A stretch of 64,000 nucleotides of DNA from Candidatus Multivorans sp. (lineage in GTDB: Bacteria > Acidobacteriota > Thermoanaerobaculia > Multivoradales > Multivoraceae). The notes under the pieces are model-generated. The model was not told where the DNA came from. It saw only the letters and a list, made by a program, of their open reading frames with translations, and ran no database searches. The DNA lies in the NCBI GenBank assembly GCA_965262355.1, contig OZ253534.1, positions 1,280,845-1,344,844 of the forward strand. The letters run 5' to 3'. A program made the position numbers and the translations under genes. Below are positions 18,485 through 43,075 of the stretch, piece after piece (positions within the stretch are counted from its first letter, which is position 1; each line of letters opens with the position of its first letter).

Positions 18485-18518
18485 GGAGACTGCGCTCGTG
18501 CAGTGGTAGCTTTTGCCC

Positions 18519-19415
18519 ATGATCTACCTTCGGCGCTTCGCCCCACTCGCACTCGCCTTCACGCTGCTCCTGGCCGCCGCCAGCCCCACCCTCGCCTCCG
18601 AGCACGAAGCGGACGGCCCCGTCCGCGTCCTCTTCGTCAGCAAGTCCTCCGGCTTCGAGCACTCCGCGATCAGGCGCACAGACGCCCAGCCGAGCCACGT
18701 CGACACCGTGCTCGCCCAGATCGCGGCCGACCGCGGCTTCGCCGTCACGTCGACCAAGGACGCCGGGATGATCAACGCCACCCAGCTCGCCAACTTCGAC
18801 GTCGTCATCTTCTACACCACCGGCGACATGACCCAGCGCGGCGGCCAAGGCTCGGGCATCTTCCGCGGCGACGGCAATCCCCCCATGAGCGCCGACGGCG
18901 TCTCCGACCTGATCGAGTGGATCGAAGCCGGCGGCGGCTTCGTCGGTTTCCATCCCGCCACCGACACCTTCCACGGCGAAAACGACGAAGTCACTCCCTA
19001 CGTCGGCATGATCGGCGGCGAGTTTCTCCACCACGGCGCCCAGTTCGAAGGCATCGTCCGCGTCGCCGATGCGGACCACCCGACGATGGGCAACGTCGAA
19101 GACGGCTGGAAGATCATGGACGAGTGGTACCTGTACAAGAACGTCGCCAAGGACGAACTGCACGTCCTCGCCCTGATGGACCCCGGCGAAGAGCGCGCCA
19201 AGCAGGAGGTGTACGACATCGCCCCCTACCCCATCGTCTGGTGCCGCGAACTCGGCGCCGGCCGCGTGTTCCACAACGCGATGGGCCACCGCGAAGACGT
19301 CTGGTCCCACCAGATGTTCCAGACCTGGGTCGGCGACACGATCGAGTGGGCGGCGGGCAAGGGTGAAGCCGCGGCAGCCCCGAACTGGGGCGATGTGGTG
19401 CCTAGGACGCCCTAG
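18519..19415 (+). CDS. ThuA-like (class I glutamine amidotransferase-like) secreted protein
   Basis: Signal peptide. ThuA motifs (FDVVIFYTTGD ... GGGFVGFHPATDTF). Confidence 0.8.
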   Translation: MIYLRRFAPLALAFTLLLAAASPTLASEHEADGPVRVLFVSKSSGFEHSAIRRTDAQPSHVDTVLAQIAADRGFAVTSTKDAGMINATQLANFDVVIFYTTGDMTQRGGQGSGIFRGDGNPPMSADGVSDLIEWIEAGGGFVGFHPATDTFHGENDEVTPYVGMIGGEFLHHGAQFEGIVRVADADHPTMGNVEDGWKIMDEWYLYKNVAKDELHVLALMDPGEERAKQEVYDIAPYPIVWCRELGAGRVFHNAMGHREDVWSHQMFQTWVGDTIEWAAGKGEAAAAPNWGDVVPRTP

Positions 19416-19485: not shown

Positions 19486-19710
19486 ATGCGGCCTCGACAC
19501 CCGAAGAAGGATGTCGAGGCTGCGCTGGCTGAAGCCGAGAAAGCAGGCTGGAACGTGACACTGACACCACGCGGCCACCGTTGGGGCGTGATGAAGTGCG
19601 GTGAAGCCAGCCGATTGGGCTGCCAAATCTCAGTCTCGTCTACTCCCAAGAACTCGGGACACCACGCCAAGCGGCTTCGACGCTATGTCAATCGCTGCCC
19701 ACACAAGTGA
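19486..19710 (+). CDS. HicA-like (YcfA family) small toxin candidate
   Basis: 74 aa. The pattern GW-V ... RGHRWGVMKCGE ... ISVSSTPKNSGHHAKRLRRYV parallels E. coli HicA (G-SNHLKLRFHGRRSVMPRHP ... LRKAILKQLG). First gene after the GC drop at the island edge. Confidence 0.4.
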   Translation: MRPRHPKKDVEAALAEAEKAGWNVTLTPRGHRWGVMKCGEASRLGCQISVSSTPKNSGHHAKRLRRYVNRCPHK

Positions 19711-19737: not shown

Positions 19738-20259
19738 ATGCCTATCCAGCAGTTCACCCTGATCGTCGAAGGTGCCGATCTGCAGTCCGAACCGGTCTTC
19801 GACGCGCTCTTTGAAGCCGGTTGCGACGATGCAACGGTCGCGCGGGTCGACGGAGTCCAGTACATCGACTTCGACCGCAATGCAGCCAGCCCGGGCGAGG
19901 CCATCCTCTCCGCGGTGCGAGACGTCAAAAGCGTCGCAGGCCTTCGAGTCACTCGCGTTGCCAACCTCAACCCAGTCTCCAAGGCCAACATCGCGGACCG
20001 AGAGCCGTGCACCCTCGACAGTGTCGGATTGTTCGTCACTTCAGCGCCCGGGCCGATCGGATTCCCTTCGCCAGTAATCGACCCGCACAGCCCGTATCGA
20101 CTGGCGCCCTGGTCCGACCTCGGACAGCTCTCCCAACCCGGCTCGGCGAACAAGCAGCGGAACCCCCTCCCCTCTTCCCCGCAGTCAACCCAAAGTTGGA
20201 ACTTCGTCGCCATTAGCACGGAATCCCTACGACCCGCAGGGACAGTCTTCGGGCTCTAA
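19738..20259 (+). CDS. hypothetical protein; possible cognate antitoxin, but only weakly HicB-like and without a recognisable DNA-binding C-terminus
   Basis: Immediately downstream of the HicA-like ORF (27-nt gap). Only the first ~100 aa look protein-like; the 3' extent is uncertain. Confidence 0.3.
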   Translation: MPIQQFTLIVEGADLQSEPVFDALFEAGCDDATVARVDGVQYIDFDRNAASPGEAILSAVRDVKSVAGLRVTRVANLNPVSKANIADREPCTLDSVGLFVTSAPGPIGFPSPVIDPHSPYRLAPWSDLGQLSQPGSANKQRNPLPSSPQSTQSWNFVAISTESLRPAGTVFGL

Positions 20260-20370: not shown

Positions 20371-23300
20371 ATGAAACGCCCATCCCACTCGACTGAGAAG
20401 GCCGTCTTCGCCCTGAGCGGAAACCAATGCGCCTATCCCGACTGCACACAACGTATCACGCACCGGCCAGCGCCTTTCGCCGACACGACTGTCGTTGGCG
20501 AGGTGTGTCACATACAAGGAAAGAAGCCTGGAAGTCCCCGGTGGAACCCGAAAATCACCCCCGCACAAATCCACAACATTGGCAACCTGATACTCCTCTG
20601 CCCGAATCACCACACAGTCGTGGACGACCAACCCGAGGTCTACCCTACCCACGTTCTGCACCGATGGAAGAAGGACCACGAAAGGAAGTTCTTCGCGACT
20701 CAGATCGAGACGATCGACCACAGCCCCTATGCCACCGCCGCCCCACGCTTCCCGACGTCACTCGTAGACAAGGAGATCGAACGGGAGCTTGAGGTCATCA
20801 GAAAGGGCCGTCTCTTCCCGGACTTCGACACCTCTCAACGCTGCCTGCAACTCGGCTTGGCCCTATCCAATGGCGAGTACGCAGGTGCAGCCACAGCAGT
20901 ACGCTGCCGAACACTGGCCTGGTGTGCCCGGCTCCTGACGCGGACCGACGAGTCGGACACCGCCAAGGAGTATCTCCGACAAGCGAAGCGACTGGGTGCT
21001 GAAAACGAAGTCGCGATCGCCAGCGCCTTGGCGAACTCCCACGAGGGCAACCATCGAGCAGCCCTCTACGTCCTGGACCGCCTCGACTCCCGGATGGCAA
21101 GGTCCGCTGCTCTCGTAGTAGCGGCCGATCAAGACGGACCGGCAGGAGCCTTGCGATGGACAAGCGACGCCGGAATCGTGGCCGCCGATCTGGATCCAGA
21201 CGGAAAGTTCCTCCTTCTCGCTTGGTTCCTTGAGCTCGGCGACTGGCATGCGGCGTTCTCAACACTTGAGGCCGTAACCGACGAGGACCGCTCAATCGCG
21301 CCTGCCATCAGTCGGCTCACAGCTCTAGCGCATCTCCTCCAGGCTGTCCCGGCGGAGTTTCGCGCGACCGTAGCCCAGAACGTACCGTTCTTCGCGTCGG
21401 ACTTTCCCCTTGCCACAGACAGGAAAGCGCTTCGGTCGCGCAGCAGAGCCCGGCGTCACGTCCGCGACGCCGCTAGGGCTGCACGAGACCTCGGCTGCTT
21501 TCTGACTGCGGAGACCTGCGAAGAGTACGCCTTGTGGCTCGAGCTTCTGGACCCGACTCACAGGCACGAGGCACGGGTGGACCTGGAAATGAAACTCCAG
21601 GACCTTGGGATGCACCTCCACTTGGTCTATCTGGGCCTACAGTTTGGCGTTCAACTCGATCTGTCTGCAATCGAGCAGGAGATTCGACACCAAGTCTCAA
21701 GGAAGGGCGGCAACACGCCAAGCACCGCGACAGCCCGGCTGGCGATAGCCACGGTGCAAGAAACACCCGAAGCGGTCGCGGAGTACGTAGCTCAGCATCG
21801 GTCAGAACTCGTCGACCACTTCGACGAGAAGTTGCTCCGGTCACTCGAGATCGATGCTCTTTCACGAGCCGGCCGCCTAGATGAGGCGCGGTCTAGCCTG
21901 CATAAGCTCGTGCGAGACGGAATCGCCGGCGCCGAAGAGGACCGGCTTCGCGATGTGATCGCCAGAGCCGAAGGCAACGACACAACGGCTTCGGCGAGGC
22001 GACGGTTTGAGGAGACCGACTCGCTGCCCGATCTCATCAACCTCGTCGAAGAGCTCGCCACCCAAGATGCACCCTCGGAAGTCCTCAAGTACGGCGAACT
22101 TCTCTTCCAAAGAACTCGTTCAAAAGAACATGCCGAACTCGTCGCCGACGCGTTGGTTCGAGTCCAGGACTACCACGGCCTCGCAGACTTCCTGGACGCC
22201 AACAGAGACCAGGTCGAGCGATCCGAAGCGCTGCAACTCTGTTCCTCCTGGTCTCTGTTCTGGCAGGGCTCTTTGCTTGAGGCTCGGAAGTCTCTGGAGA
22301 GCTTTGTCGGCAGCCATGATCAGTCGAACTATCGCAACCTACAGGTCCACTTGGCCGTCTCCCTGGGTGACTGGGAATCAGCATCGATGATTGTCGAGTC
22401 GGAGTACCAAGCTCGGGAACGGAGAAGCGGGTGGGAACTAGTGAGAGCCGCCCAACTGGCTGCCGAGCTGGGATTCCCGCGCGCGAAGGAGCTGACGTTG
22501 GCGGCAGCGGAGAAGGCCGAAGATGACGCAGGATTCTTCGCGGCTCTCTACTTGCTGACGGTCAAGGGAGGTTGGGACAACGAGCCAGATGCTGTAGCCT
22601 GGCTCCACCGGGCAGTCGAACTCTCGGGTCCGGATGGCCCCTTTCAGCAGATACGTCTCGAGACTCTCATGAGTGAGAGCCCAAAGTGGCGCAAAGGCCG
22701 GGTCAGCGTACTGGAGAAACTGGACCGAGGCGAGATTCCGGCTTTCCTGGCCGCCGAGTACCTCTACAGCTCCCTCTCAAACCTGATGCTGCGCCCGGCT
22801 CTGGCCAATGAGTCGGAGGACGACCCGCGCCGCAGGCGCTGCGTTCCGGCATACAGCGGCAAACGCCCACAAGTGCCCTGTAAACCGGGAAGCCAGGCTT
22901 GCTTTGACGGAACGGCACTTCTCACACTGGGCTTTTTGGATTTGCTCGACCAAGCTCTGGACGTTTTCGACACGATCTACGTTCCGCACTCCACACTCAC
23001 TTGGCTCTTGCGCGAGAAGACAGGAGCGTCTTTCCATCAGCCGAGTCAGGTAGAGGACGCGTGTCTGGTACACGACTTGCTCGAGGATGGGACGATCTCA
23101 GTCGTCCAGCCAACCGTCTCGCCGAACGTCAAACTGGCTTCCGACGTAGGGCACGAACTAGCCATGCTGATTGCCGAGGCCGGGACGGACGACCCGGCCG
23201 GCAGTCAGCGGCTGGTCGTTCGGCCCTTTCCGGTGTATCGCATCGGATCCCTGATGGATGACGTAGTCGATCTTACGGCGCACCGTCGCGTTCTCACGAG

Positions 23301-24456
23301 TTGCCAGGCAATCGTCCAGAGTCTGGAGCGGCAAGGTCTCTTGACCGAAGGCCAGTACGAAGCCGCAGTCTCGTATCTGCGCCTACAAGAGAAACCCTGG
23401 CCCGAACAGCTCGAGATCAGCACGCCCGCCGTCCTTTACCTAGACGGCCTAGCCATGACCTACTTCCTTCGGCTCGGCCTGCTTGGAGTTCTGCGGTCAG
23501 GCGGCCTCAAAGTCTACGTCCCTCCCGACACAGTTTCCGAGATGAACGAACTGCGTTCATATGAACGCACATCCGATGAAGTGACGGCGATCCTAGAACG
23601 CATCCGAATCGCTGTCAGGTCCCGGATCGAATCAGGACGCGTACACATCGGACCTGTCCAGCCTCCTGAGTCATCCGATGAAGAGTCGCACGTGCGGCAT
23701 CCAACCATGGAAGTCGTGGCCTTGGCCGACCGTTCGGATGTCATCGTGTCCGATGATCGTTTCCTCAATGGCTACCCTGAGATCGGCCAGGGCGACGGTT
23801 CCGCACCCACCGCCACGACACTCGATCTTCTGGACACTCTGGCAGCGGCCGGTGCGATCTCGGAAGCGGACCGGCGACGCCATAGGACCCGGCTTCGCCG
23901 CGCCGGGTATCTCTTCGTGTCGGTCGAGAAAGACGAACTCCTCTCTCACCTGCTGAAAGCGACAATCCTGAACGAACGCCTCGTGGAAACGGCAGAACTC
24001 AAGGCCGTGCGGGAGAGCGTTCTCGTCGCGCGGATGGGCAGCCAGCTTCAAGTTCCCGACGAATCACAGTGGCTTACAGACACGATCGGCGCATTCGTCG
24101 CCGCCTTGAAGGACTTGTGGCGAGGTGAACCCGATGTCTCTGGTGCGCGACTGCGGTCGGACTGGATCCTGGAGCAGATTGATCTCCGAGGTTGGACCCA
24201 CCGGCTACCTCCGGACGGCTCCAGTCGGACCATGGACGGCGTCCGGGCCGAGCAAGTGATCCAACTCGTGCTGGCGCCTCCAGAGGCCTCAGCGACCGTG
24301 AGCGGACGCTACTGGGATTGGGTCGAGGAGCGAGTGCTGAAGCCGATTCAGGCGACTGAACCGGCCCTGTACTCTTGGCTCGCCGAGCAGTTCCTGCTCA
24401 CCGTCTCGCGGGTGGCAGACAAGGCTGCTGAGAACGCGGAACCTGACGATGACTAA
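20371..24456 (+). CDS. 1361-aa multidomain protein: N-terminal HNH nuclease, long TPR-like helical region, tandem PIN-like motifs near the C-terminus
   Basis: HNH signature C-x2-C ... GEVCHI ... N ... LLCPNHH within residues 1-110. No Walker A motif found. Two psi-x-psi-P-x2-T-psi-x-E segments (IYVPHSTLTWLLRE, VYVPPDTVSEMNE) and a PIN C-terminal-like DRSDVIVSDDRFLN. Lower GC than flanks. Confidence 0.7.
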   Translation: MKRPSHSTEKAVFALSGNQCAYPDCTQRITHRPAPFADTTVVGEVCHIQGKKPGSPRWNPKITPAQIHNIGNLILLCPNHHTVVDDQPEVYPTHVLHRWKKDHERKFFATQIETIDHSPYATAAPRFPTSLVDKEIERELEVIRKGRLFPDFDTSQRCLQLGLALSNGEYAGAATAVRCRTLAWCARLLTRTDESDTAKEYLRQAKRLGAENEVAIASALANSHEGNHRAALYVLDRLDSRMARSAALVVAADQDGPAGALRWTSDAGIVAADLDPDGKFLLLAWFLELGDWHAAFSTLEAVTDEDRSIAPAISRLTALAHLLQAVPAEFRATVAQNVPFFASDFPLATDRKALRSRSRARRHVRDAARAARDLGCFLTAETCEEYALWLELLDPTHRHEARVDLEMKLQDLGMHLHLVYLGLQFGVQLDLSAIEQEIRHQVSRKGGNTPSTATARLAIATVQETPEAVAEYVAQHRSELVDHFDEKLLRSLEIDALSRAGRLDEARSSLHKLVRDGIAGAEEDRLRDVIARAEGNDTTASARRRFEETDSLPDLINLVEELATQDAPSEVLKYGELLFQRTRSKEHAELVADALVRVQDYHGLADFLDANRDQVERSEALQLCSSWSLFWQGSLLEARKSLESFVGSHDQSNYRNLQVHLAVSLGDWESASMIVESEYQARERRSGWELVRAAQLAAELGFPRAKELTLAAAEKAEDDAGFFAALYLLTVKGGWDNEPDAVAWLHRAVELSGPDGPFQQIRLETLMSESPKWRKGRVSVLEKLDRGEIPAFLAAEYLYSSLSNLMLRPALANESEDDPRRRRCVPAYSGKRPQVPCKPGSQACFDGTALLTLGFLDLLDQALDVFDTIYVPHSTLTWLLREKTGASFHQPSQVEDACLVHDLLEDGTISVVQPTVSPNVKLASDVGHELAMLIAEAGTDDPAGSQRLVVRPFPVYRIGSLMDDVVDLTAHRRVLTSCQAIVQSLERQGLLTEGQYEAAVSYLRLQEKPWPEQLEISTPAVLYLDGLAMTYFLRLGLLGVLRSGGLKVYVPPDTVSEMNELRSYERTSDEVTAILERIRIAVRSRIESGRVHIGPVQPPESSDEESHVRHPTMEVVALADRSDVIVSDDRFLNGYPEIGQGDGSAPTATTLDLLDTLAAAGAISEADRRRHRTRLRRAGYLFVSVEKDELLSHLLKATILNERLVETAELKAVRESVLVARMGSQLQVPDESQWLTDTIGAFVAALKDLWRGEPDVSGARLRSDWILEQIDLRGWTHRLPPDGSSRTMDGVRAEQVIQLVLAPPEASATVSGRYWDWVEERVLKPIQATEPALYSWLAEQFLLTVSRVADKAAENAEPDDD

Positions 24457-26407
24457 AGCGAGCGAGCTCCGAACCGCCACGGCCTTGCTTGCATTGGAGT
24501 GCATACCGCCGTCCTTGCGAGAGACCTTGGCGCGCCACGTCCGGATGCGCGACGACTATGGCATCCGACTCGACACCATCCTTGAGGTCGGTGATTCAGA
24601 CTTCAAGGCACCCGTTTCAGCCATCGTGCGTGGCGTCACAAGTGCCCTTAGTGGCACCCCAAGAACCACTCTTCGGGACACGGGCGGTAACGACTGGTCA
24701 ATCGAGCCCGACACCGACCGTGAACAACCCGCGCTTGTCTTCGCCCATGGCGAGCGTCACGTCGGTATGCATGCGTGGCTGACGCTGTCGCCGGACCGGA
24801 GCACAAGGCTTCGTTGCCTTGAGGCGCTCGCCACCGACGCCGGTCTGCCGCCGAAGGCCTGCTCCTCCTGGCGACGGGTCCTTGAAGAACGGAGCCTCAA
24901 CGGCGAGGAGGTGCCTGACTTCCTCTCGGACCTTCACAACACGCCACACGTTCAAGAGCAGTTTCTCGCCAACAGCATTGGCACCCCCGGGCTGAACTCG
25001 CAGTTGGCCGCGCCCCCATCTCGGACGTACTTTGAAAGACTCGTTGGCTCGCGAGGCGACAGCGCCTCGATCCAACGTCACGCTGCGGTCGGCGCCCGGG
25101 AACACCTTGCCGAATTGGCCGCTTGGCGGCCATATGAAGGCTTCTTGCAGAGTCTCTACATGGCCTCGCATCCTTGCCTTAGCGCGCAGATTCGGGTCGA
25201 CGGCATGAGCAGCGACGAGCTCGTACAAGCGTTCGAGTTTATCCTTCGCGTTGGAGACCAAGTGTCGCAGCTAGGCACCATCGAGGTGGGGTTCCGCGTG
25301 TCCGCTGACCGGCCCGAGGTGATTCCGGCGCTCAACAAGTTAGTGGATCTGATGCGCAGCGACGACACAACCGACAAAGAAGGTCGGTTTCGCACGTACT
25401 CGCTCCTGTACATGCTTGTTACGAGCGAGTTGTCGACACGGCAACAACTCGCTGGGGAACCTCCCTTCTACCGACGTCTGGCAGCCCTGGCGCAAGCCGG
25501 CGTGATTCAGCGGCAGATGGTAGTCGCAGGCATTACCCTGAAGGACTCCGCCCTTGAGTCGGTGACTGGAGAGTATCTTGTGCGGTCCGTCGTAGACCTT
25601 CGGCTGGAGCCACGGCGGCACCCAACCCTCGCCTTCGCAGAGCAATTGCAGGCCCACTTCTTGAGGCGCGTTTTGCGAGCCGCCATCCGGTATGAGAACG
25701 AGCTCTACACGGAACTCATGGGGGAACTTGGGCACCTGCTGGGTCCCGAGGGCCTCCGCCAAGCCGGCGAGGCATTCGTTCTATACACGCCTGGGCCGCT
25801 AGAGGAACCTGAGGAGAATCGAGCGCTACCAGCCGAGTTCGCCCAAGCAATCCAGGTACAGCTCGACACGGACGACGCCATCGAGCCCGCTGACTTCTCA
25901 GCGCTCAGGACCTCCACGACGAGCTTTCGTATTGGTAAAGCACAAGCAGATTTGGCGGCGGCCGCACTCACACGTTCCGCTAACCGGCTGGCGAACGTCA
26001 AGAGTCACTCCGAACTCTTCGCTACGCTGGCTGGCTTGGCGTCCGTTGCCGCGATAGCTCGGAGCGAGCGGCTTGCGGACACGCTTCGCGTCGTGGTGAG
26101 AAGGTACCGCCGGGACTCTGAGTTCCCGATCGCATTCTTCGAAGCAGCGCAGATCCTGCTGGTCGCGGCCGCGAGCAGGGCGGAACTAGGGAACTGGGCG
26201 GACTTCGTAGGGGATTGCCTGACGGAGTTGGCCTTTGGCGATCTGGCCGAGGGCGACGGTGAGATTCTCCACGGTTATGTGCGACGTCTCTGCGAAATCG
26301 TGCCCGAGCTATGGGCGACCTGCGGGAGCGCCGACGCAGCTCTCATGGCCTACAACGGTTCGATACCGAGCGATCAGGGCAGTCAGAAGCAAACGTCCGG
26401 CACCTGA
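24449..26407 (+). CDS. 652-aa all-helical partner protein of unknown function
   Basis: Start ATG overlaps the upstream stop (ATGACTAA, 8-nt overlap), indicating translational coupling. No catalytic motif recognised. Confidence 0.65.
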   Translation: MTKASELRTATALLALECIPPSLRETLARHVRMRDDYGIRLDTILEVGDSDFKAPVSAIVRGVTSALSGTPRTTLRDTGGNDWSIEPDTDREQPALVFAHGERHVGMHAWLTLSPDRSTRLRCLEALATDAGLPPKACSSWRRVLEERSLNGEEVPDFLSDLHNTPHVQEQFLANSIGTPGLNSQLAAPPSRTYFERLVGSRGDSASIQRHAAVGAREHLAELAAWRPYEGFLQSLYMASHPCLSAQIRVDGMSSDELVQAFEFILRVGDQVSQLGTIEVGFRVSADRPEVIPALNKLVDLMRSDDTTDKEGRFRTYSLLYMLVTSELSTRQQLAGEPPFYRRLAALAQAGVIQRQMVVAGITLKDSALESVTGEYLVRSVVDLRLEPRRHPTLAFAEQLQAHFLRRVLRAAIRYENELYTELMGELGHLLGPEGLRQAGEAFVLYTPGPLEEPEENRALPAEFAQAIQVQLDTDDAIEPADFSALRTSTTSFRIGKAQADLAAAALTRSANRLANVKSHSELFATLAGLASVAAIARSERLADTLRVVVRRYRRDSEFPIAFFEAAQILLVAAASRAELGNWADFVGDCLTELAFGDLAEGDGEILHGYVRRLCEIVPELWATCGSADAALMAYNGSIPSDQGSQKQTSGT

Positions 26408-26574: not shown

Positions 26575-28038
26575 TCATCCGGCTCGGTGCGAGAGCGACG
26601 AACGTAGCTGCCGGAGTTCTTCATTCGCCTCGTTCGTCTGGTCTCCGTCGCTCGACACATACAGCCATCCCCAGACGTGGACGTTCGACGCCACCATCAG
26701 AACAATCTCCCGCTGCCCAAAGCCCAACTTGGCGAGGAGAATCACCCTTACAAGCGCCACTGCCTTCCCGGCCAAGGACCGCGCGTCGTTACCTCCCCAG
26801 GATCCCCCGTGAACCAGCCGGCTTCGACACTCCCACAGCTCCCTCACGAGGTCTCCAGGTTCGTCCACAACGTCGCGGTAGGGTCGGAGCAGATCTTCAA
26901 TCGCCCTCCGCCTACTCTGCTTGCACAGCCAAGCCTTCATTCTCATCCAGGCCTTAGTTTCCCCCGAGCACGAACTCAAGACCTTGTCATAGAGCCGGCG
27001 CGCCTCCGAATCCTCCTTGTCCCGCGAAGCCAAGCTCTCCAGGCACTGCACGGCGTCGACTAGACTGTGCCTCACGAGATGTCGACCGCAACACAAACTC
27101 AAGTAGAGATCGACCAGCCACTCGTGTCTATCGTAGTACTCGAACCAACTTCCGATCACACTTTCTTCTCTGCGCCCGATATCCTTGGCCAAGAACAGCA
27201 TGTCGATCCAAGTCACATCCGGTTCATCCTCGGGCCTGGACGGAGTCCACTCAGGCTTGAAGACCTTCTCCCCATCCCGGCCCGAGAGCGAGAGCAACCG
27301 CATCGGTCTGTTCGTCACGAACCAGAGGAATCGTTGAAAGACCTCCGCCACCCGAACGAAATCTCCGACAGCCACTCCCTGTTCTTCAACCGCCTCGATC
27401 CTCAAGACCGGCCGCTGCCGGATGACGACTTCGTGGGTGTTGCTCGCGGAACCCTCCCAAGAGAACCCGCAGGATAGGTGGAATTTGATCCCCCGACTCA
27501 CCACTTCTACTCGGGGCAGGGCCGCTGCACTCTTCGACACGGAGAACGTACACTCCCTGAACCACACGAGGGGTTCCGTCTCGATTCCACGTACATCCAA
27601 CCAGGTGTCGAGACCCTCAATGGTCACGTTCATGCCTGTCAGCGAAGGTGATTCCTCAAGCGGCTCCTGGCGCAAGAGAGCACGCGTCGGCCAGACCCTC
27701 TCGCTAAGATTGACGAAGGCGCCGAGCGTATGGCTCCGCAGAATAGGCTCGTAAGAGTAGCCGCACCCTTCGAGAGCGACGTATCGACCATCATGAAGGC
27801 GCCCGCACACCAACGTGTCGATTCTCTGAGAGGCATGATACGGAATCCCCAAGAACGAAGACCTCTCTTCATCTTCGAAGGTGAGTGCAGTGCGGTATCT
27901 GTCCGGGAGGTCGAGATCAAGTACTGCCCTACCGCTCCTCGTGAGGGTCAGGGTTCCATCGAGATGTTCGATCTGGTCTTCGGCATGCTCGGGCAACCAG
28001 AACTTCCCTCGCAGCTTCTGTTCGCTCTGGATCTTCAC
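26575..28038 (-). CDS. ApeA-like protein with C-terminal HEPN (Rx4H) domain
   Basis: 487 aa. C-terminal ELWECRSRLVHGG matches the HEPN R-x4-H motif. The architecture (large N-terminal domain plus C-terminal HEPN) resembles the ApeA single-gene defence protein. Family call from memory. Confidence 0.45.
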   Translation of the reverse strand: MKIQSEQKLRGKFWLPEHAEDQIEHLDGTLTLTRSGRAVLDLDLPDRYRTALTFEDEERSSFLGIPYHASQRIDTLVCGRLHDGRYVALEGCGYSYEPILRSHTLGAFVNLSERVWPTRALLRQEPLEESPSLTGMNVTIEGLDTWLDVRGIETEPLVWFRECTFSVSKSAAALPRVEVVSRGIKFHLSCGFSWEGSASNTHEVVIRQRPVLRIEAVEEQGVAVGDFVRVAEVFQRFLWFVTNRPMRLLSLSGRDGEKVFKPEWTPSRPEDEPDVTWIDMLFLAKDIGRREESVIGSWFEYYDRHEWLVDLYLSLCCGRHLVRHSLVDAVQCLESLASRDKEDSEARRLYDKVLSSCSGETKAWMRMKAWLCKQSRRRAIEDLLRPYRDVVDEPGDLVRELWECRSRLVHGGSWGGNDARSLAGKAVALVRVILLAKLGFGQREIVLMVASNVHVWGWLYVSSDGDQTNEANEELRQLRSSLSHRAG

Positions 28039-28179: not shown

Positions 28180-31100
28180 CTAGACCGTGACCTTAGTTTC
28201 CGCATCACCAGCCGCCAAAGCGTTCATGTACGCCAGGATCAGGTTACTGCTCCGGTAACCATCAAACTCAGCTTCGTCGTGGCGCCGGACGATAGGGAAC
28301 GTTCCGAGAACGTACTCCGCGTCTTGTCGGGACAACCCGTAGAGCAGGAAGTACAACGCATTCAGCCTGGCACGCAAGTGTCGGCGGTCCTCTTCATCCC
28401 AGGAGAGCGGAGGCCGGTCGTAGCCGAGGTCACGCGCAATCGACTCCATGTCGTGCGCCGTATAGCTGAGGCGCAGGATGTGGTCGCGGACCAGGTCCAA
28501 GGCGGTCCTCTTCCCGAGTCGGCGCTCGTAACCCTCACGGCGAATGACCGGCAACTGCTCGACGATGAACCAGTTCAGGTGCTGGCCCTGGACCTTCTGC
28601 CGGGCCACGAAGTCGAACACGAAGGAGTTGAAGTTCGCTGCGAGCAGCCACAGCGCCTCGGCGTCGGCCGCAGTTGAGCCGGCGCCAGCCGGCAAAAGCA
28701 AAGGCAGTGTGTTACCCACGCCGGAGCGAGGTATGAGGGCAGCGATCATCGTGCGGACGTTCGTCGGCGCGGTGACATCCTTGAAGGCGAGCGCCCAATC
28801 GAGACTCTCAGGCCAATCTACGTCGTTCGACGAAACCCAGAACTGTGGATCAGGGGACCAGCCAGGGTCTTCATGTTCCGCCAACGTCGCCATTCGCGGC
28901 TGTGCCGGCCGGTTCAGGTTCTCCGGGTTGACCACGATGTTCGCCGCGCGGTGGTCGAATGCCTGCACCATCTTCCCCTCGTACAGCGGCAGCCACTCTT
29001 CCTCACCTCGCTTCCACCGATTCCCAGCGACCGGGTAGCAACCCGCTGACTCAAGCTCCGCAGCAGTCCGAAACAAAAGCGAACCGGCCACACACGCCGC
29101 TCCCCACCGCCGGATCGGTCCACCAGCACCGGATGGCGTTCGTAGATGCCCCGCGTGATCTCGGCGTCCCGGCGGGTGCGGAAGACGGGCGCGGTGCCCG
29201 TATTCGGATTGACCCGCGTAAAGTCGGTCGGACTTAGGGGGAAGCATCGTTCCGGGTCGCTCAGATCCCCCGAGCTGTCGAGAAAGAAGCCGCACGGGGT
29301 CTCCGAGAACGTCCGCTCGGCGCCTCCGAGGATCAAGGCGGAGAACTTGAAACTACGGTGGACGTCCGCGAAGAACGGCGGCAGCCCGGTACCCAGGCGC
29401 CGATTCTCGAAGTCGAAAAGGCCAGCCAACCGGCCACCGGTGGACATCGACTGGAAGAACGGCGCGGCCGTCATGTCGGCGTAGATGCCTGAAGGCACAA
29501 GCAGCCCCACCAGGCCGCCAGGCCTAAGCACGTTCAGCGCCCGCTCGACGAAGAGCGAGTACAGGTTGATGTCGCCCCTGCCAAGCAACGGATAGTCGCC
29601 TGAAGTGCGGAACAGCGTCAGGAGGCTGTCGGCGCGCTGCTTCGCCTCGTCGAACGCGGCGGCCAACGGCTCACCGCGGTCTCGGAGTTTCTTGATGCCA
29701 ATACGGCGCTGTGCCGCGGTGGGAGCGCGGGCAAGCTCTGGATCGCGGGTCGCGAACCACTCCACTTCCTGCAGTTTGATCCGGTCCCAGGGCGGATTGC
29801 CGATCACCGCGTCGAACCCGCCATCCGGGCTGCGCCGCTGCCAGTGTCGCCAGACCCCCGGGAAGGCCACCTCCCAATGCAGGAAGGTCTCCCGTTCGGC
29901 CAGCGCGCGGGCATCGCGCCATAGCTCGCCGAATCTCGAGAGGCCGGCGTCGTCCGAACTGGCCGAGGTCGCATCGATGGCTTCCGGACCCTCCGCGAGG
30001 AGTGAATACGCCCTGGCCGGATAGGCGCCAATCACTTCGAGCAGTCCACGCGTCTCGAACTCGTTGCGCTGCTTCTTCTTCATGCCCGCGGTCAACCAGC
30101 GAAGGCTGCACAGGAAGTCGAGCGCGCGGCGCAGCTCGGAGGTCGCCTGGTCAACGCCCTCGAAGAGCATCGCCGACTCCCGGACCTCCGCCACGTCGGC
30201 GTCGGACATCTCCTCGATCAGCTCCATCCCGGCAACCGCGTTCTCGGCGCCCTGGATAGCGCTGGAAGCGATCAGCCCACCGAGACGGCGAAGCTCATCC
30301 GTTCCATCGCCGACCCTGAGGCCGACAAGCGAATCGCCGCACCGCAGATGATGATCCAGGAACGACAGCGGCGCGCCGACGGTGAAGCTGTGCAGCCATA
30401 GCGACACCTTGGCCAGTTCCACCGTCAAGCGGTTCTTGTCCACGCCGTAGATACAGCGCTTGAGCACCATTCGCCGGATGATCGCCTGATCCGTGAGTTG
30501 CGCCTCGTCGATCACCCAGTCCGATTCGGCGGCGCGATGGAGGATGCCCTGCCGGATACGAGCGATCCGACCCACAAGGGGCGATTCGTACGGCTCGTCA
30601 AGCCACTCCGGCACCGCCGGCACGTACTCGATGAGTTCCGCCACATAGTCGGAAAGGAAGTCCACGGCCGTGACCAGGAAGTGGCCGCTTCCCATGGCGG
30701 GATCGAGCACCTTGAGATCCAACACGGCCTCCGCCGGGTCGATCTGCACCAGATCCGCTAGGCGGTCGTCCTTGGTCCGGCGGTCGCTCTTGAGCTCCTC
30801 GGCCTTCGCCTCGAACGCCAGCAGGCGCTCTTCCGCCAGCGGCTTGAGCGTCTGCTCGACGATCAGGTCGACCAGTTCCTGGCTCGTGTAGAAGCTGCCG
30901 CTGTCCTTCCGCGCGAAACGGTTGAGCTGGATCGAGACGTTGCCTGCCGGGTCTCGCACCGGCTCCCGCTCAAGGAGACGCTCGTAGATCGAACCCAACT
31001 GCTGGACCGACATATCGCGGTAGTTGACGAACCTGGCCCGACCATCGCCCCTGTGGCCGAAATGGCTGAGCCCGAAGACGACCGGGGCCGTCTCACTGTC

Positions 31101-32216
31101 TGCGAGACGAACCCTTGCCAGCAGTGGCGCCGCTTCCTCGGCGAACAGACCGCCGTTGTAGGGCGGCAAGCCGATCGACCGGTCACCGCCGTCGATCTGC
31201 CGGAAGAGCTCCATCAGACGGTTGTAGTAGTTGCCGGCCGTGCTCGAGAACGTGTCCCCTTCGGCCATCCGGCGGGCAATGTCGTCCCGCACTCGCCGCC
31301 TCAGACCGTAGTCGTCGTACCTGGGGTCGTTGACCGGCAAGAGACCCCGGTCCTCGGCGTAGAGAACGAACAGCAGCCGGTAGAGGAAGATCAGCGCGGC
31401 GTCGCGGATCTCGCGCAGATCGGCCGATGGGGCCCTCTCAGCAAGCGCGTTCAGAAGTCGGGGGAAAGCATCGTCGAAGACGGCCTGAGAGAGGTCCTCG
31501 GCGACCTTCTCCTCATAGCGCTTTCCCTCTGCGATCGCCGCGTCGATGAAGGTCGTCGTCGCTCCGTCCTGCAGCGTGAACGCCTGACGACCGAACAGGA
31601 GAAAGAACCTTCTCAGACCCTCCTCGTCCTCCGCCCTCAGCATTGAAGCCAGGTCCGCCTCGAAGTACGCGCTGGCTCGGGGGCGGGCGCGAAAGTCGTA
31701 GAGCCTCCAAATCTCTCCGTTGGTCAGGATGCCCCAACGAACTCGGCTATCGGAGACAGCCTCGGCGGTCGCCAGATAGCGGAGGATCTGCCCGTGCGGC
31801 GTGCCAAGAGACGACCGGTCCGTACGGTCACGAGCGTCGAGCGCCAGACCGAACCGCTTGCTCTCCTGCACCACCAGAGCGTCCCGGTAGCGATCGTCGG
31901 GAACCGGGCGCTCGGCAGCACGAGCTTTCGCCCCGGGGTTTTCGAACAGCAGGTGATCCGGGATGCCCTCACCCCTGGAAGCCGCTTGCTGAGGCAGGTA
32001 GTCCGTCCATCCCAACAACCTGAGGACCGGACGAACCACCTCCTCCTCGGTCACCGCCTCGTTCGGGTCCGTGAAGCGGCTGAACTCCGCCAAGCAGTTG
32101 GAGACACCGGCCCGGAACTCGGCAAAGGCCTCCGGGTGACGGACCGACTCCCGCCACTCGGCCGTGTCCCGAATGCCGTCGGTCAGGAAGTACTGGGTGA
32201 AGAGTTGGCCGGGCAA
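28180..32216 (-). pseudogene. type IIG restriction-modification enzyme (MmeI/Eco57I/PglX-like: N-terminal PD-(D/E)xK, gamma-class N6-adenine MTase), split by a frameshift
   Basis: WGILTNGEIWRLY and D...VVQESK nuclease motifs. MTase motif I VLDPAMGSGHFLV and motif IV GNPPW. The 1100-aa ORF (32216 to 28914) degenerates into an Arg-rich tail after ...IYERHPVLVDRSGG, while the real-looking C-terminus continues in another frame (ORF 29295..28180: LFRTAAELESAGCYPVAGNRW ...). The shift lies at ~29080-29110, by a C4/G4 run. Confidence 0.7.
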
Positions 32217-32574: not shown

Positions 32575-34014
32575 ATGATTGACAAACAAACCGGCATGAG
32601 CAGCAAGGAGCGCATGGGCGAGGAGATCGCCGCGCTCGCTGCGCGCATCGATGCGGCGACTTACGAACTGCTCGTCCTGATCCGCAAGTTCGATGAAGAG
32701 GAAGGCTGGAACCGCGGCTTTCTCACTTGCGCCCACTGGCTGACCTGGCGGATCGGGCTGGCGCCCGGCGCGGCCCGTGAGCGGGTGCGAGTCGCCCGAG
32801 CCCTAGGCGACCTGCCCTTGATGAGTAAGGCCATGAGACGCGGCGAGCTCTCCTACTCCAAGGTGAGAGCGCTCACCCGCATCGCCACGCCGGACACCGA
32901 GCAGTCGCTGGTTGACTTGGGCAGGGCCGGAACCGCCGCGCAAGTCGAGCAAGTGGTGAGAAGCTGGCGGCGGATCGACCGCACAATCGAGGCCCACGAC
33001 GACGAGCTGCGCGACGCATCCAGCCATGTGACGACCCACATCGACGAGAACGGCATGTTCGTGATCCGCGGTTGTCTGGCGCCGGAGGCGGGCGAGGTCC
33101 TGATGAAGGCACTCGATGCGGCGAGCGACAAGCTCTACGCAGAGCAGCAGGAAGACAAACCGCCAGTCGGAAAAGTGCGCGCCGACGCTCTTGCTCTGGT
33201 TGCCGAGAGCGCGCTCAAGGGCGGACTCGATCCGGGGTCCAGCGGCGACCGCTATCAGGTCGTGGTTCATGCGAACGGGGAAGAGCTGACGGCGCAGGAG
33301 AGCGCCACGGCTGACAACCGGACTCACGTTCCCGCGGGAACGTCTCGGGCACGCGTTCCCGCGGGAACGTCCCCGTTCCCAGGAGCTGTCAACGGCGCCT
33401 GGCTCGGGACCTCCCATGTCCCTGTTTCCGCGGAAACAGCCCGGAGGATCGCCTGCGACGCCGGCAGAGTCTCGATGACCCACCGGGACGGCCAGATCCT
33501 TAGCGTTGGCCGCAAGACCCGCACGATCCCGCCGCCGATCCGGCGGGCCCTGGAGTTCCGCGACCAGGGTTGCCGCTTCCCCGGCTGCACATCGGAGCAC
33601 TGCGACGCTCACCACATCGTCCACTGGGCCGACGGCGGCGAAACGAAGCTCTCCAACCTCGTGCTCCTCTGCCGCCGACACCACCGCCTGCTTCACGAAG
33701 GCGGCTTCAGCGTCAGGATGAACGAGGCACGCGCCGTTCAGTTCCTTGACAAACGTGATCGGCCGCTGGAGCGCAGCCCCGCGCCGCCACCTGTTGGCTG
33801 CCCGCGAGCTGATCCGCCACCTGGAGGACGCCGGCATTCTGGTCACCGGCAAGGAATCGATGCCCGCTTGGGACGGCACACCGATGGACCTGCCTTACGT
33901 CATGGAGTGCCTGTGGCGGCCGCCACCGCATCTCGAAGCAGCGGTCGCCCGGGAACGAAACACATCGCACGCCGCGTAGGGGCCAACGGCTCGGAACGGT
34001 GCTCGCTCCACTAG
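32575..34014 (+). CDS. DUF222 + HNH endonuclease (13E12-repeat-family type)
   Basis: N-terminal DUF222-like helical region. C-terminal HNH (CRFPGCTSEHCDAHHIVHWADGGETKLSNLVLLCRRHHRLLHEGG). The real stop is probably near 33.78 kb; the Arg-rich tail to 34014 looks like read-through. Confidence 0.8.
   Translation: MIDKQTGMSSKERMGEEIAALAARIDAATYELLVLIRKFDEEEGWNRGFLTCAHWLTWRIGLAPGAARERVRVARALGDLPLMSKAMRRGELSYSKVRALTRIATPDTEQSLVDLGRAGTAAQVEQVVRSWRRIDRTIEAHDDELRDASSHVTTHIDENGMFVIRGCLAPEAGEVLMKALDAASDKLYAEQQEDKPPVGKVRADALALVAESALKGGLDPGSSGDRYQVVVHANGEELTAQESATADNRTHVPAGTSRARVPAGTSPFPGAVNGAWLGTSHVPVSAETARRIACDAGRVSMTHRDGQILSVGRKTRTIPPPIRRALEFRDQGCRFPGCTSEHCDAHHIVHWADGGETKLSNLVLLCRRHHRLLHEGGFSVRMNEARAVQFLDKRDRPLERSPAPPPVGCPRADPPPGGRRHSGHRQGIDARLGRHTDGPALRHGVPVAAATASRSSGRPGTKHIARRVGANGSERCSLH
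33326..33379. repeat. two copies of an 18-bp perfect palindrome (A)CGTTCCCGCGGGAACG(T) 27 nt apart, plus a CGTTCCC half-site, inside the DUF222/HNH gene
   Basis: Read directly; encodes the repeated peptide HVPAGTSRARVPAGTS in the inter-domain linker. Confidence 0.6.
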
Positions 34015-36789: not shown

Positions 36790-37947
36790 CTAGGTCTCCA
36801 CGCCCTCGTTCAAGATCCGCAGATACTCGCTGTAGACGTACACCCGGTTCCGGCTGAAGCCGGTGAGTTCGCGGACCGTACCTGCCTCCTCCAGGAGCTT
36901 CATCGCGGCGGAGGCGGTCGGGAACGAGAGGCCGGTGCGGTCGCACGTTGCCGGAATGGAGAGCAGCGGCCGCTGCCGTAGGGCTTCGTGGACCCGCAGT
37001 GCCGAACCGGCTCGCCGACCGGTGTTGGCCAGGCGTTCGCGGTCAGCGGTGAACCGTTCGGTGAGGCGCTGTGCCGTTCTCGCGGCATCTTCGGCGGTCT
37101 CCTGAACGCCTTGGAGGAAGAAGGCGAGCCAAGCCTCCCAATCACCGTCACGGCGCACGCGGTCGAGCAACTCGTAGTACTGGTCGCGGTGGCGCTTGAA
37201 GTAGACGCTGAGGTAGAGGAGCGGCTGGCTCAGCATCCCGGCTTCACACAACAGCAGGGTGATGAGCAGCCGGCCTACGCGGCCGTTGCCGTCGAGGAAG
37301 GGGTGGATCGTCTCGAACTGGACATGTGCGAGACCGGCTCGAACCAGGGTCGGCAACCAGTCGTCTTCAGCGTGCAGGAAGCGCTCGAGTTCAGCCATGC
37401 AGTCGGGCACGGCGAGGTGCGGCGGCGGCACGAAGACAGCGTTGCCCGGGCGGGTGCCGCCGATCCAGTTCTGGGAACGCCGAAACTGACCCGGTTCCTT
37501 GCTTACGCCGCGACCGGCAGACAGCAGGATGCCGTGCAGCTCGCGGATCAACCGGTTCGAGAGCGGAAAGTCCTCGCCGAGTCGCTTCAGGCCGTGTTCC
37601 AGGGCGTCGACACAGCGCGAAACTTCCGCCGCATCGGCGATCGGCACTCCCGGCGCCTGGTCGAGTTCGAACAGCAGGAGATCGGAGAGCGACGACTGAG
37701 TGCCCTCAATCTGGGAGGACAACACCGCCTCCTTGCGGACGTAGGAGTAGACGAAGAGCGTCGGCTCCAGGAGTTGATTCGCTCCCTCCAGCCGCCCAAG
37801 GGCGAGACTGGCGGCTTCCAGGGATCGCAGCAGGGGGCCTTCGAGGTTCAGCGGGGGTTGCGGCGGCAGGGGCGCTGGAATGAAGGCGCGCACCTGCTCG
37901 CCTCCTTCGGCGGTAACTTCATGGCGACCCGGCATTGGACGTTTCAT
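36790..37947 (-). CDS. Fic-family protein (Fic/DOC AMPylase fold) with C-terminal winged-helix
   Basis: Canonical Fic motif HPFLDGNGRVGR. Confidence 0.85.
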   Translation of the reverse strand: MKRPMPGRHEVTAEGGEQVRAFIPAPLPPQPPLNLEGPLLRSLEAASLALGRLEGANQLLEPTLFVYSYVRKEAVLSSQIEGTQSSLSDLLLFELDQAPGVPIADAAEVSRCVDALEHGLKRLGEDFPLSNRLIRELHGILLSAGRGVSKEPGQFRRSQNWIGGTRPGNAVFVPPPHLAVPDCMAELERFLHAEDDWLPTLVRAGLAHVQFETIHPFLDGNGRVGRLLITLLLCEAGMLSQPLLYLSVYFKRHRDQYYELLDRVRRDGDWEAWLAFFLQGVQETAEDAARTAQRLTERFTADRERLANTGRRAGSALRVHEALRQRPLLSIPATCDRTGLSFPTASAAMKLLEEAGTVRELTGFSRNRVYVYSEYLRILNEGVET

Positions 37948-42766: not shown

Positions 42767-43075
42767 ATGTCGAGAAGAAGGAGCCGGTACCCAGCAGAGT
42801 ACCGGCAGCAGATGGTGGATCTGGTCCGGTCCGGGCGGAGCCCGGACCAACTAGCCCGCGAGTTCGAGCCGTCAGCGCAGTCGATCCGGAACTGGGTCGC
42901 CCAGGCGGACCGGGACGAGGGTCGCCGCAGCGACGGGAGCACGACGGCGGAGCGTGAGGAGTTGCGCCGTCTGCGCCGGGAGAATCGCCGGCTGCGGGAA
43001 GAGCGGGAGATCCTGGCAAAAGCAACGGCCTGGTTCGCTCGGGAGACGGAACCGAAGGGGTCTTCCGGTTCATGA
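42767..43075 (+). CDS. IS3 OrfA (HTH transposase N-terminal part)
   Basis: MSRRRSRYPAEYRQQMVDLVRSGRS ... leucine-zipper region. Ends 4 nt inside orfB. Confidence 0.8.
   Translation: MSRRRSRYPAEYRQQMVDLVRSGRSPDQLAREFEPSAQSIRNWVAQADRDEGRRSDGSTTAEREELRRLRRENRRLREEREILAKATAWFARETEPKGSSGS

Follow-up and report, generated by a model that had tools for sequence, protein, structure and literature searches.

Two overlapping genes in the window (the whole 64,000-nucleotide stretch of Candidatus Multivorans sp. DNA analyzed here), designated gene A and gene B, probably constitute a two-subunit branch of the effector-TPR-GreA/B-C-PIN (TGP) counter-invader family, judging from their domain content and that of their homologues. 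TGP is a biological conflict family predicted by comparative genomics (Kaur, Iyer, Burroughs & Aravind, eLife 2021; PMC8195603), and the sequence-only reading of the pair as an undescribed module outside any named system must be revised, since PF20698, PF24407 and PF24388 match both proteins or their families and the parent family is already in the literature. What is new is the two-subunit, double-PIN, permuted-GreAB-C organization, for which no description was found in the searchable literature and no model in PADLOC v2.

Organization of the locus

Gene A (20371..24456, + strand), recognized from its open reading frame and translation and from Pfam and PADLOC matches, begins with an ATG and encodes 1361 aa. 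Gene B (24449..26407, + strand), recognized as an open reading frame, also begins with an ATG and encodes 652 aa. As read from the window sequence, the ATG of gene B (24449-24451) lies just ahead of the TAA of gene A (24454-24456), and the resulting 8-nt overlap, ATGACTAA (24449..24456, + strand), suggests that the two genes are translationally coupled. GC content is 0.60–0.62 across 20–28 kb versus 0.66–0.70 in the upstream flank, and the neighbors of the pair include ApeA (26575-28038, - strand), an MmeI-like type IIG restriction-modification (RM) gene (28914-32216, - strand) and a DUF222-HNH gene, which adds to the defense context. The two overlapping ORFs, the low-GC setting and the ApeA and type IIG RM neighbors had all been pointed out from the sequence and are borne out here; a proposed HicA-like neighbor is not, as the ORF at 19486-19710 had no Pfam match at E<=0.01. 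A scan for promoters and terminators around the operon returned sites no more numerous than in shuffled sequence.

Domain architecture of gene A

The N-terminal part of gene A (aa 1-110; 20371..20700, + strand), occupying a variable effector position, is an HNH (His-Me finger) nuclease by both PADLOC and Pfam. PADLOC models of HNH effectors align to residues 4-107 with E values between 9e-33 and 1e-20 (9e-33 for PDC-M68A, 1.9e-21 for the CBASS-type endonuclease effector, 1.4e-20 for SAVED_HNH). Pfam HNH_2 scores 24.3 bits on the isolated N-terminal segment, and all 38 homologues that bear an HNH keep C20, C25, H47, N72, C77 and H81 unchanged. These matches and invariant residues confirm the HNH domain that had been claimed, with the correction that its first zinc-ligand pair is C-x4-C (C20...C25) and not C-x2-C. 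In the PADLOC v2 scan this was the extent of the match, the other 1250 aa of A and all of B being unmatched, and an NCBIfam scan of the two proteins gave no meaningful match.

The HNH domain is followed by a TPR-like alpha-helical repeat region (aa 116-762; 20716..22656, + strand), presumed to act as a sensor or scaffold. Its Pfam matches stay below threshold (TPR_6, E=1.6e-4, under the cutoff; PPR, weak), and a PDB-sequence profile search gave weak TPR/Sel1 matches at E~0.3; the region is colinear in 66/66 homologues at 29–63% identity. A helical TPR-like stretch of ~700 aa had been expected; the conserved region, putatively of this kind, measures ~640 aa. Immediately downstream is a 70-aa domain (aa 763-832; 22657..22866, + strand) that matches HTH_upstream_double_PIN (PF24407) over its full length (1-70/70) at E=2.5e-18 and 66.6 bits (cutoff 27), and that is helical in the predicted structure.

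True to its name, this domain precedes two PIN domains, namely PIN1 (aa ~840-1017; 22888..23421, + strand) and PIN2 (aa ~1018-1178; 23422..23904, + strand), the latter carrying the motif DRSDVIVSDDRFLN. Both are copies of the TGP PIN domain in Pfam (PF20698), in agreement with the two PIN segments noticed beforehand, and their acidic residues are kept in 61–67 of 67 sequences. The protein ends in a conserved helical domain (aa ~1179-1361; 23905..24453, + strand), which in fused homologues joins straight onto B. Although this domain had no Pfam match as an isolated segment and no relevant match in a PDB-sequence profile search, it is found in 66/66 homologues (identity 27–68%), is helical in the predicted structure and contains the invariant tryptophans W1234, W1250, W1265, W1275 and W1317. 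The Walker A motif [AG]xxxxGK[ST] is absent from both A and B, as is any NTPase match in Pfam. The order of HNH, TPR-like region and two PINs without an NTPase, as originally described, is supported, and with it the claim that the pair is not of the Avs/STAND type.

Gene B and its putative Gre-like domain

Gene B encodes a short helical N-terminus, an alpha/beta domain (aa ~40-112; 24566..24784, + strand) and a ~530-aa alpha-solenoid (aa ~113-640; 24785..26368, + strand), with a predicted structure of pLDDT 80 and pTM 0.78. The alpha/beta domain, a putative RNA-polymerase-docking module, shows strands at 44-46, 53-55, 73-76, 82-88, 95-100 and 103-106 and a helix at 56-67 in that structure, so that the partner is not the all-helical protein lacking a recognizable domain that it had been taken for. 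The family of the domain is Permuted GreAB-C (PF24388). The window copy scores 18–20 bits, under the cutoff of 27; PF24388 is above cutoff in full-length B homologues that are 40–44% identical (two tandem copies reach 80–97 bits), and most of 120 listed B-family matches have it as a precomputed annotation. A PDB-sequence profile search with the B alignment gave no relevant match.

The Gre-like nature of the domain is thus putative, taken from the Pfam family name for a window copy that falls under the cutoff. A circular-permutation test, in which classical GreA_GreB (PF01272) was run against a tandemly duplicated B domain, returned no match. When the B domain was compared by hhalign with a GreA-C profile, in its native order and in two “un-permuted” versions, the probability was ~0.1%, the same as for two control permutations. 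The hhalign test is weak, because the GreA sequences behind the profile share 87% identity or more with E. coli GreA and the profile is of low diversity (Neff 1.6). In our own reading, the order of strands and helix in B and the S-x-I-x-R-G motif of the helix would be compatible with a permutation. PF01272 likewise had no match in gene A, even when its segments were scanned separately at E<=10, and the slot between the TPR-like region and the PINs is filled by the PF24407 HTH.

Pairing, fusion and effector exchange among homologues

A profile of B recovered 1339 cluster representatives at E<=1e-3, and the syntenic partner pairs sought in other genomes were present. At ~50 of 80 B-homologue loci, B is preceded by an A-like ORF of 1180–1640 aa whose stop overlaps the B start by 1–11 nt, and at 17 others (17 of 66 complete systems) a single ORF of 1890–2235 aa encodes both A and B. 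Fusions make up ~21% of the best 150 library representatives of B, and a downstream partner, whether overlapping or fused, is kept in essentially all complete loci. Conserved pairing, overlap and such Rosetta-stone fusions support a functional link between A and B as one two-gene module, and the existence of natural fusions would itself imply that the two act together. The window pair has the Pfam architecture PF24407 plus two copies of PF20698, followed by a Permuted_GreAB-C protein downstream. One homologous protein (P0178) bears PF24407, PF20698 and PF24388 together, and neighboring proteins at loci L083–L087 show the same double-PIN and Permuted_GreAB-C domain sets.

The N-terminal effector is the part that changes. 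It is HNH in 37 of 66 homologues, and the rest have TIR, PNP_UDP_1, Metallophos, SMEK_N, uncharacterized domains or none on a colinear core. Even the ~18 of 66 homologues with no N-terminal effector retain the PIN pair and its acidic residues, which suggests that the central activity of the system resides in the PINs.

The distribution of A and B is patchy across many phyla, with 3 plasmid and 0 phage records among the homologues; no B homologue was found in a phage collection. The defense-island setting described for the window holds there and in other genomes, where RM and other defense genes lie nearby. Neighbors at L083/84 include an Eco57I-type RM system, TIR, AAA_15/21 and HipA; at L085/86 a type I RM system surrounds the pair, with HsdM/HsdS on one side and HsdR on the other; at L001 the neighbors are the NgoMIV restriction enzyme and a methyltransferase; and those of a homologue on an Agrobacterium pAt plasmid are HsdR-N, SIR2 and an AAA ATPase. 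In a raw tally of 131 ORFs flanking 22 loci, RM, AAA_15/21, HipA, Fic, RhuM and resolvase were the most frequent families. A and B form a widespread, probably anti-phage, module.

Relationship to known systems

The pair resembles the TGP family in several ways. Gene A shares the PF20698 family, named by Pfam for the “PIN domain associated with the TPR-GreAB-C-PIN system”, and has, N-terminal to the PINs, a long putative TPR-type array with sub-threshold TPR matches. Its variable N-terminal effector comes from the set that Kaur et al. describe, which includes HNH, TIR and PNPase, the system includes a domain that Pfam assigns as Gre-derived (under the cutoff in the window copy of B), and both families combine a lack of NTPase with a defense-island context. 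The differences are equally plain. Canonical TGP is one gene encoding TPR, GreAB-C and one PIN, with “few conserved gene neighbors” (PMC8195603), whereas A has the 70-aa HTH where GreAB-C normally lies, two PINs and an extra ~180-aa helical domain, and the putative Gre-like domain is permuted and placed at the N-terminus of an obligate 640-aa alpha-solenoid protein, B, either separate or fused C-terminally. The source table of Kaur et al. (2021) yielded a single PIN+PIN row, SIR2+TPR+PIN+PIN of 2304 aa, in which the B part is unannotated.

A TGP protein is also the basis of Agp/Bab, a two-gene system of E. coli ECOR25 that defends against phage T5 by abortive infection and in which protection requires intact GreA/B-C residues and probably the PIN too (bioRxiv 10.1101/2024.11.07.622273). 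Agp, however, follows the canonical TGP layout, with one PIN and an internal GreA/B-C. Its partner Bab, a membrane effector of 109 aa with a Bell domain, is linked to it by an amyloid motif that both share and is unrelated to the 652-aa B.

Other assignments were rejected. The N-terminal 107 aa of A match the CBASS, SAVED-HNH and PDC-M68A models (E=1e-20 to 9e-33), so its effector would be the same kind of DNase module; CBASS itself does not fit, as those models cover residues 4-107 only, SAVED, CD-NTase and other CBASS components are lacking, and no cyclase was present among the ORFs scanned at 15–45 kb. Avs/STAND was set aside for want of a Walker A motif or NTPase match in either protein, and a Septu-type ATPase because its defining features are missing. 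VapBC was dismissed since the PINs lie inside a protein of 1361 aa whose partner is a downstream protein of 652 aa, fused in ~20–25%, and there is no VapB-type antitoxin. Unlike the PIN RNases of the VapC, SMG6 and Fcf1 types, the PINs of A are in tandem within a multidomain protein.

Possible modes of action

TGP systems have been proposed to defend by inspecting host RNA polymerase. The most probable mode of action for the pair extends the model that Kaur et al. (2021) put forward and the mutational results for Agp. In such a scheme, A and B would form a complex, and the Gre-like domain of B would dock it on RNA polymerase at the rim of the secondary channel. A phage protein or some state peculiar to infection might then be sensed by the TPR-like and solenoid arrays, the PINs could cleave nascent or phage RNA, and the HNH would be released as a DNA-degrading abortive-infection effector. 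It is conceivable, if still rather doubtful, that A-B is an immune nuclease coupled to transcription, its polymerase-docking module having been circularly permuted and moved to the separate solenoid subunit, with the tandem PINs serving as a composite RNase.

Direct protein sensing without RNA polymerase seems an unlikely alternative. Here, a phage protein would be recognized by A through its TPR-like array and by B through its solenoid, much as TPR sensors do in Avs or CapRel-type systems, and the HNH or another effector would then be switched on, leaving the PIN pair and the alpha/beta domain of B to be structural or regulatory, or to cleave bulk RNA or tRNA like VapC. This sits poorly with the intact PINs of the ~18 of 66 effector-less homologues, with the classing of the B domain as Gre-derived by Pfam curators and with the necessity of GreA/B-C residues for defense in the parent family.

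The tight translational coupling, the prevalence of PIN and HNH among toxin domains, the presence of homologues beside an integrase and VapBC on a conjugative Agrobacterium plasmid, and the IS elements close by at some loci could all be accommodated by an addiction module of a mobile element, with A as toxin and the large B protein as antitoxin. We nonetheless consider this very improbable, given that fusion in ~20–25% would be atypical of a labile antitoxin, that B (640 aa) is about as conserved as A, that phage or plasmid enrichment is not seen (3 and 0 plasmid and phage records, respectively), and that at L001/L011 gene A is interrupted by IS insertions with B intact. Inactivation by IS insertions in one genome likewise counts against a housekeeping or stress factor for transcription or RNA quality control, even though Gre-type domains and PIN RNases are active in normal RNA metabolism. 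A polymorphic toxin aimed at other bacteria could account for the HNH domain, which is known from such toxins; yet the nuclease here is N-terminal, the Pfam scan gave no match to secretion, Rhs or PT-trafficking domains, and a small immunity gene was likewise not identified. The sporadic distribution over many phyla, the low GC and the RM and defense neighbors oppose the housekeeping and polymorphic-toxin roles alike, and there is scarcely any likelihood of either.

Implications

At present, the pair carries the labels “hypothetical protein” or “HNH endonuclease” and escapes PADLOC v2, and its recognition would improve the annotation of defense islands. The canonical member Agp/Bab is the sole TGP with experimental support, and here a large, many-phyla branch separates the proposed polymerase-docking domain (B) from the nuclease/sensor subunit (A). 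The pair is therefore suited to asking whether a Gre-like domain directs an immune nuclease to RNA polymerase, which substrates the conserved tandem PINs cleave, and how swappable effectors (HNH, TIR, PNPase, phosphoesterase) couple to one core. If the transcription-coupled reading is true, this branch of more than 1000 sequence clusters would be architecturally distinct, with a partner, trigger and substrate unlike those of canonical TGP, and A-B would represent a new way for bacteria to monitor a hijacked RNA polymerase.

Architecture of the gene pair

The gene pair described here is a variant of TGP (TPR-GreA/B-C-PIN), a conflict family defined by computation, and has two subunits, a double PIN and a putative permuted Gre domain. 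Pfam already models its domains, and it is not the undescribed module that a sequence-only reading had proposed. Gene A (20371–24456, + strand) is an ATG-started ORF of 1361 aa, and gene B (24449–26407, + strand) is an ATG-started ORF of 652 aa. At their junction, gacgATGACTAAagc, the ATG of B begins at 24449 and the TAA stop of A ends at 24456, an overlap of 8 nt. In these respects the earlier reading was accurate, including the stop/start overlap and the placement of the pair in low-GC DNA (0.60–0.62 at 20–28 kb vs 0.66–0.70 upstream). It was also right that A carries no NTPase Walker motif; a scan of both A and B found no Walker A. All of the motifs it quoted for A are present, except that the first Cys pair is C20-x4-C25 rather than C-x2-C.

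In a Pfam scan of A, PF24407 (HTH_upstream_double_PIN) was found at aa 763–832 with 66.6 bits, and PF20698 ("PIN domain associated with the TPR-GreAB-C-PIN system") matched two stretches with 62.2 bits. HNH_2 was weak in the whole-protein scan and above cutoff when the segment was searched in isolation. Isolated segments also gave a partial match for PIN1 (aa 845–888), an end-to-end match for PIN2 (E=8.8e-13), and nothing above threshold for either the ~640-aa helical region, where TPR_6 and PPR were sub-threshold, or the last ~230 aa. PADLOC matched A at aa 4–107 only, through the HNH effector models of CBASS, SAVED-HNH and PDC-M68A.

The catalytic-type residues of both PINs are well conserved, as counted over 67 aligned A proteins. 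In PIN1, D846 is kept in 62, E882 in all 67 and D967 in 63; in PIN2, the counts are 63 for D1025, 66 for E1076, 67 for D1128, 64 for D1129 and 61 for D1152. The HNH residues C20, C25, H47, N72, C77 and H81 are unchanged in 38/38 homologues bearing that domain.

The putative Gre-like domain of gene B

Gene B had been described as a partner with no recognizable domain, a view that its homologues overturn. In the window protein, PF24388 (Permuted GreAB-C) scores 18–20 bits at aa 55–90, below the cutoff of 27. Full-length homologues of equal length and 40–44% identity, however, carry PF24388 as a precomputed annotation, and their two tandem copies of it score 80–97 bits. On this basis the N-terminal domain of the B family is assigned to PF24388, with the window copy as a divergent member.

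Whether the domain is truly Gre-derived is the weakest link, as independent tests gave no support. Tandem duplicates of the B domain did not match the classical GreA_GreB model, and hhalign comparison of native or re-ordered B-domain profiles with a GreA-C profile returned a probability of ~0.1%, no higher than for control permutations. The latter is a weak test rather than a refutation because the GreA profile is nearly clonal, all of its sequences being ≥87% identical to E. coli GreA. By eye, the order of elements (helix and hairpin, then two strands) fits a permuted Gre-C fold, as does the conserved helix S57-x-I-x-R-G...L67, which may be compared with S124-P-I-A-R-G-L130 of GreA, the counterpart positions in Agp being S628 and L634. 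These features offer a lead toward such a fold.

Distribution and coupling of A and B

The module is real and abundant. Among 1.84 billion proteins, a B profile recovered 1339 cluster representatives at E≤1e-3 and 1108 at E≤1e-10, while no B homologue was found in a phage collection. A genome scan yielded 80 loci in Acidobacteriota, Nitrospirota, Latescibacterota, Chloroflexota, Spirochaetia, cyanobacteria, Paenibacillus, many Proteobacteria and others, the closest (56–76% identity) being from Acidobacteriota (Thermoanaerobaculia, Multivorans). At ~50 of the 80 loci, an ORF of 1180–1640 aa overlaps the start of B by 1–11 nt, and at 17 of the 80 A and B are fused into one ORF of 1890–2235 aa. 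Of the 150 highest-ranking library representatives for the B profile, ~21% are likewise fusions. The order TPR-like/HTH/PIN1/PIN2/C-terminal domain (/B) was colinear in all 66 complete systems when searched by blastp with segments of the window A. The fusions, the conserved coupling and the exchange of effectors on an otherwise constant core are, taken together, strong comparative evidence that A and B form a single functional system.

One locus (L001, 1335–8008, identical to L011; from Nitrospirales MAG OZ244941.1) has A in three pieces of 756, 286 and 249 aa, interrupted by an IS3-family element present in two inverted copies, with an intact B and a retained 8-nt overlap; it looks like a recently inactivated copy. 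In a separate search of 5.8 billion proteins, the A homologues among the best 120 of 130 matches were all ≤1047 aa, vs 1260–1640 aa for A proteins from genomic loci. Most of those matches come from short contigs, and tallying domain architectures from that list would give a biased picture.

A variable effector slot

Across the 66 complete systems, the N-terminus is the sole part that varies. An HNH head occurs in 37 and a tail of 24–76 aa in ~18, while the remainder carry SMEK_N, PNP_UDP_1, calcineurin-like phosphoesterase or unknown domains; a TIR head is found at L085/86. In the fused A-B proteins of Paenibacillus (L015, 5216–11911, 2231 aa; L026, 5204–11911, 2235 aa), an N-terminal calcineurin-like phosphoesterase replaces the HNH. 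L064 is headed by PNP_UDP_1 (nucleoside phosphorylase) and a weak wHTH-PRTase-associated domain. At six other loci (L022, L025, L052, L075, L077 and L079), the first 110–175 aa of the A homologue have no Pfam match and are possible uncharacterized effector or adaptor domains. A homologues without an effector retain both PINs and their acidic residues, which points to the PIN pair as the central activity, with the HNH as an accessory.

Genomic neighborhood

The module marks the start of a low-GC island. Upstream are MMPL, luciferase-like monooxygenase and ThuA genes, the last of these (18513–19415) being the last housekeeping gene scanned before A. Between ThuA and A are two + strand ORFs of 74 aa (19486–19710) and 173 aa (19738–20259), presumably what had been read as a HicA-like gene; neither has a Pfam match at E≤0.01, so that Pfam lends no support to that reading. 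The ApeA-like and type IIG neighbors proved genuine. The former (26575–28038, − strand), with matches to ApeA_NTD1 at E=1e-17 and to HEPN_Apea at E=7.7e-7, is oriented convergently toward the 3′ end of B, and the latter is an MmeI/Eco57I-type IIG restriction-modification protein of 1100 aa (28914–32216, − strand). A 371-aa ORF without a Pfam match (28180–29295, − strand) shares ~380 nt with the 3′ end of the IIG gene, which points to a possible error in one of these gene calls or in its start position. Farther along are a DUF222 and HNH endonuclease gene (32575–34014, + strand; E=5e-24 and 4e-7), the second HNH gene of the island; a Fic/DOC protein with a C-terminal wHTH (36790–37947, − strand); an IS3-family transposase (rve; 43072–43920, + strand); and an AAA_16 ATPase (44046–45242, − strand). 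The low-GC variable region seems to reach at least ~48 kb.

Related pairs keep similar company. The pair at L083/84 adjoins an Eco57I-type RM gene, a TIR protein, an AAA_15/21 ATPase and HipA, and that at L001 adjoins an NgoMIV-type restriction enzyme and methyltransferase. On a conjugative plasmid of Agrobacterium fabrum, the pair, with both members annotated "hypothetical protein", is near an HsdR-N protein, a SIR2 protein, an AAA ATPase, VapBC and an integrase. At L085/L086 (5790–11926), the TIR-headed pair (1403 + 641 aa) is flanked by HsdM/HsdS on one side and HsdR on the other, inside a type I RM operon, an example of one defense system nested in another. In a descriptive tally (Pfam, PADLOC) of 131 flanking ORFs at 22 further loci, the commonest were type I and type IV restriction components, ResIII, AAA_15/21, HipA, Fic, RhuM, resolvases and PLD nucleases.

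Relation to TGP and possible mechanism

Kaur, Iyer, Burroughs and Aravind (eLife 2021; PMC8195603) defined TGP as a conflict system, mostly a standalone gene, with a constant TPR + GreA/B-C + PIN core and, ahead of it, any of 13 effectors, HNH, REase, TIR, SIR2 and PNPase among them. They predicted that, with the Gre domain bound to the coiled coil of RNA polymerase beta-prime, the PIN cleaves the extruded transcript, and that the N-terminal effector is a back-up suicide module. Later work with the E. coli TGP protein Agp and its amyloid-coupled partner Bab showed protection from T5 through abortive infection, which was lost when GreA/B-C substitutions mimicked GreA–RNA polymerase contact mutants (2024 preprint, bioRxiv 10.1101/2024.11.07.622273).

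The pair shares with TGP the PIN family, a long helical array with putative TPR-like repeats, a variable effector slot with the same repertoire, the lack of an NTPase, a defense context and a domain that Pfam calls Gre-derived. It differs in that A has an HTH in place of the GreAB-C, two PINs and an extra helical domain, while the Gre-like domain is classed by Pfam as permuted and heads an obligate 640-aa alpha-solenoid partner, either as a separate gene or as a C-terminal fusion. It thus departs from TGP as strictly defined in two features, the internal GreAB-C and the standalone gene, and belongs to the double-PIN architecture of Pfam. The Pfam names HTH_upstream_double_PIN and Permuted GreAB-C show that curators have recognized this variant's domains; literature searches found no paper using those names or their accessions, and PADLOC v2 has no model for the pair. 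The source table of Kaur et al. holds mainly canonical rows, along with one "TM+SIR2+TPR+PIN+PIN+TM" protein of 2304 aa, the size of a fused A-B, in which the B part is unannotated.

The pair is almost certainly a conflict or defense system, and readings as a TA module, a housekeeping function or a polymorphic toxin fit poorly. By extension of the published TGP model, A and B would assemble, as the fusions and coupling suggest; the small domain of B would dock on RNA polymerase, the repeat arrays would sense the state of infection, the PINs would cut RNA, and the HNH would serve abortive infection by degrading DNA. The chief alternative, a repeat complex that senses protein directly and never touches RNA polymerase, is less likely but keeps some weight. 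For the docking model, the split architecture of A and B makes the RNA polymerase hypothesis tractable, and the pair therefore merits experimental follow-up.
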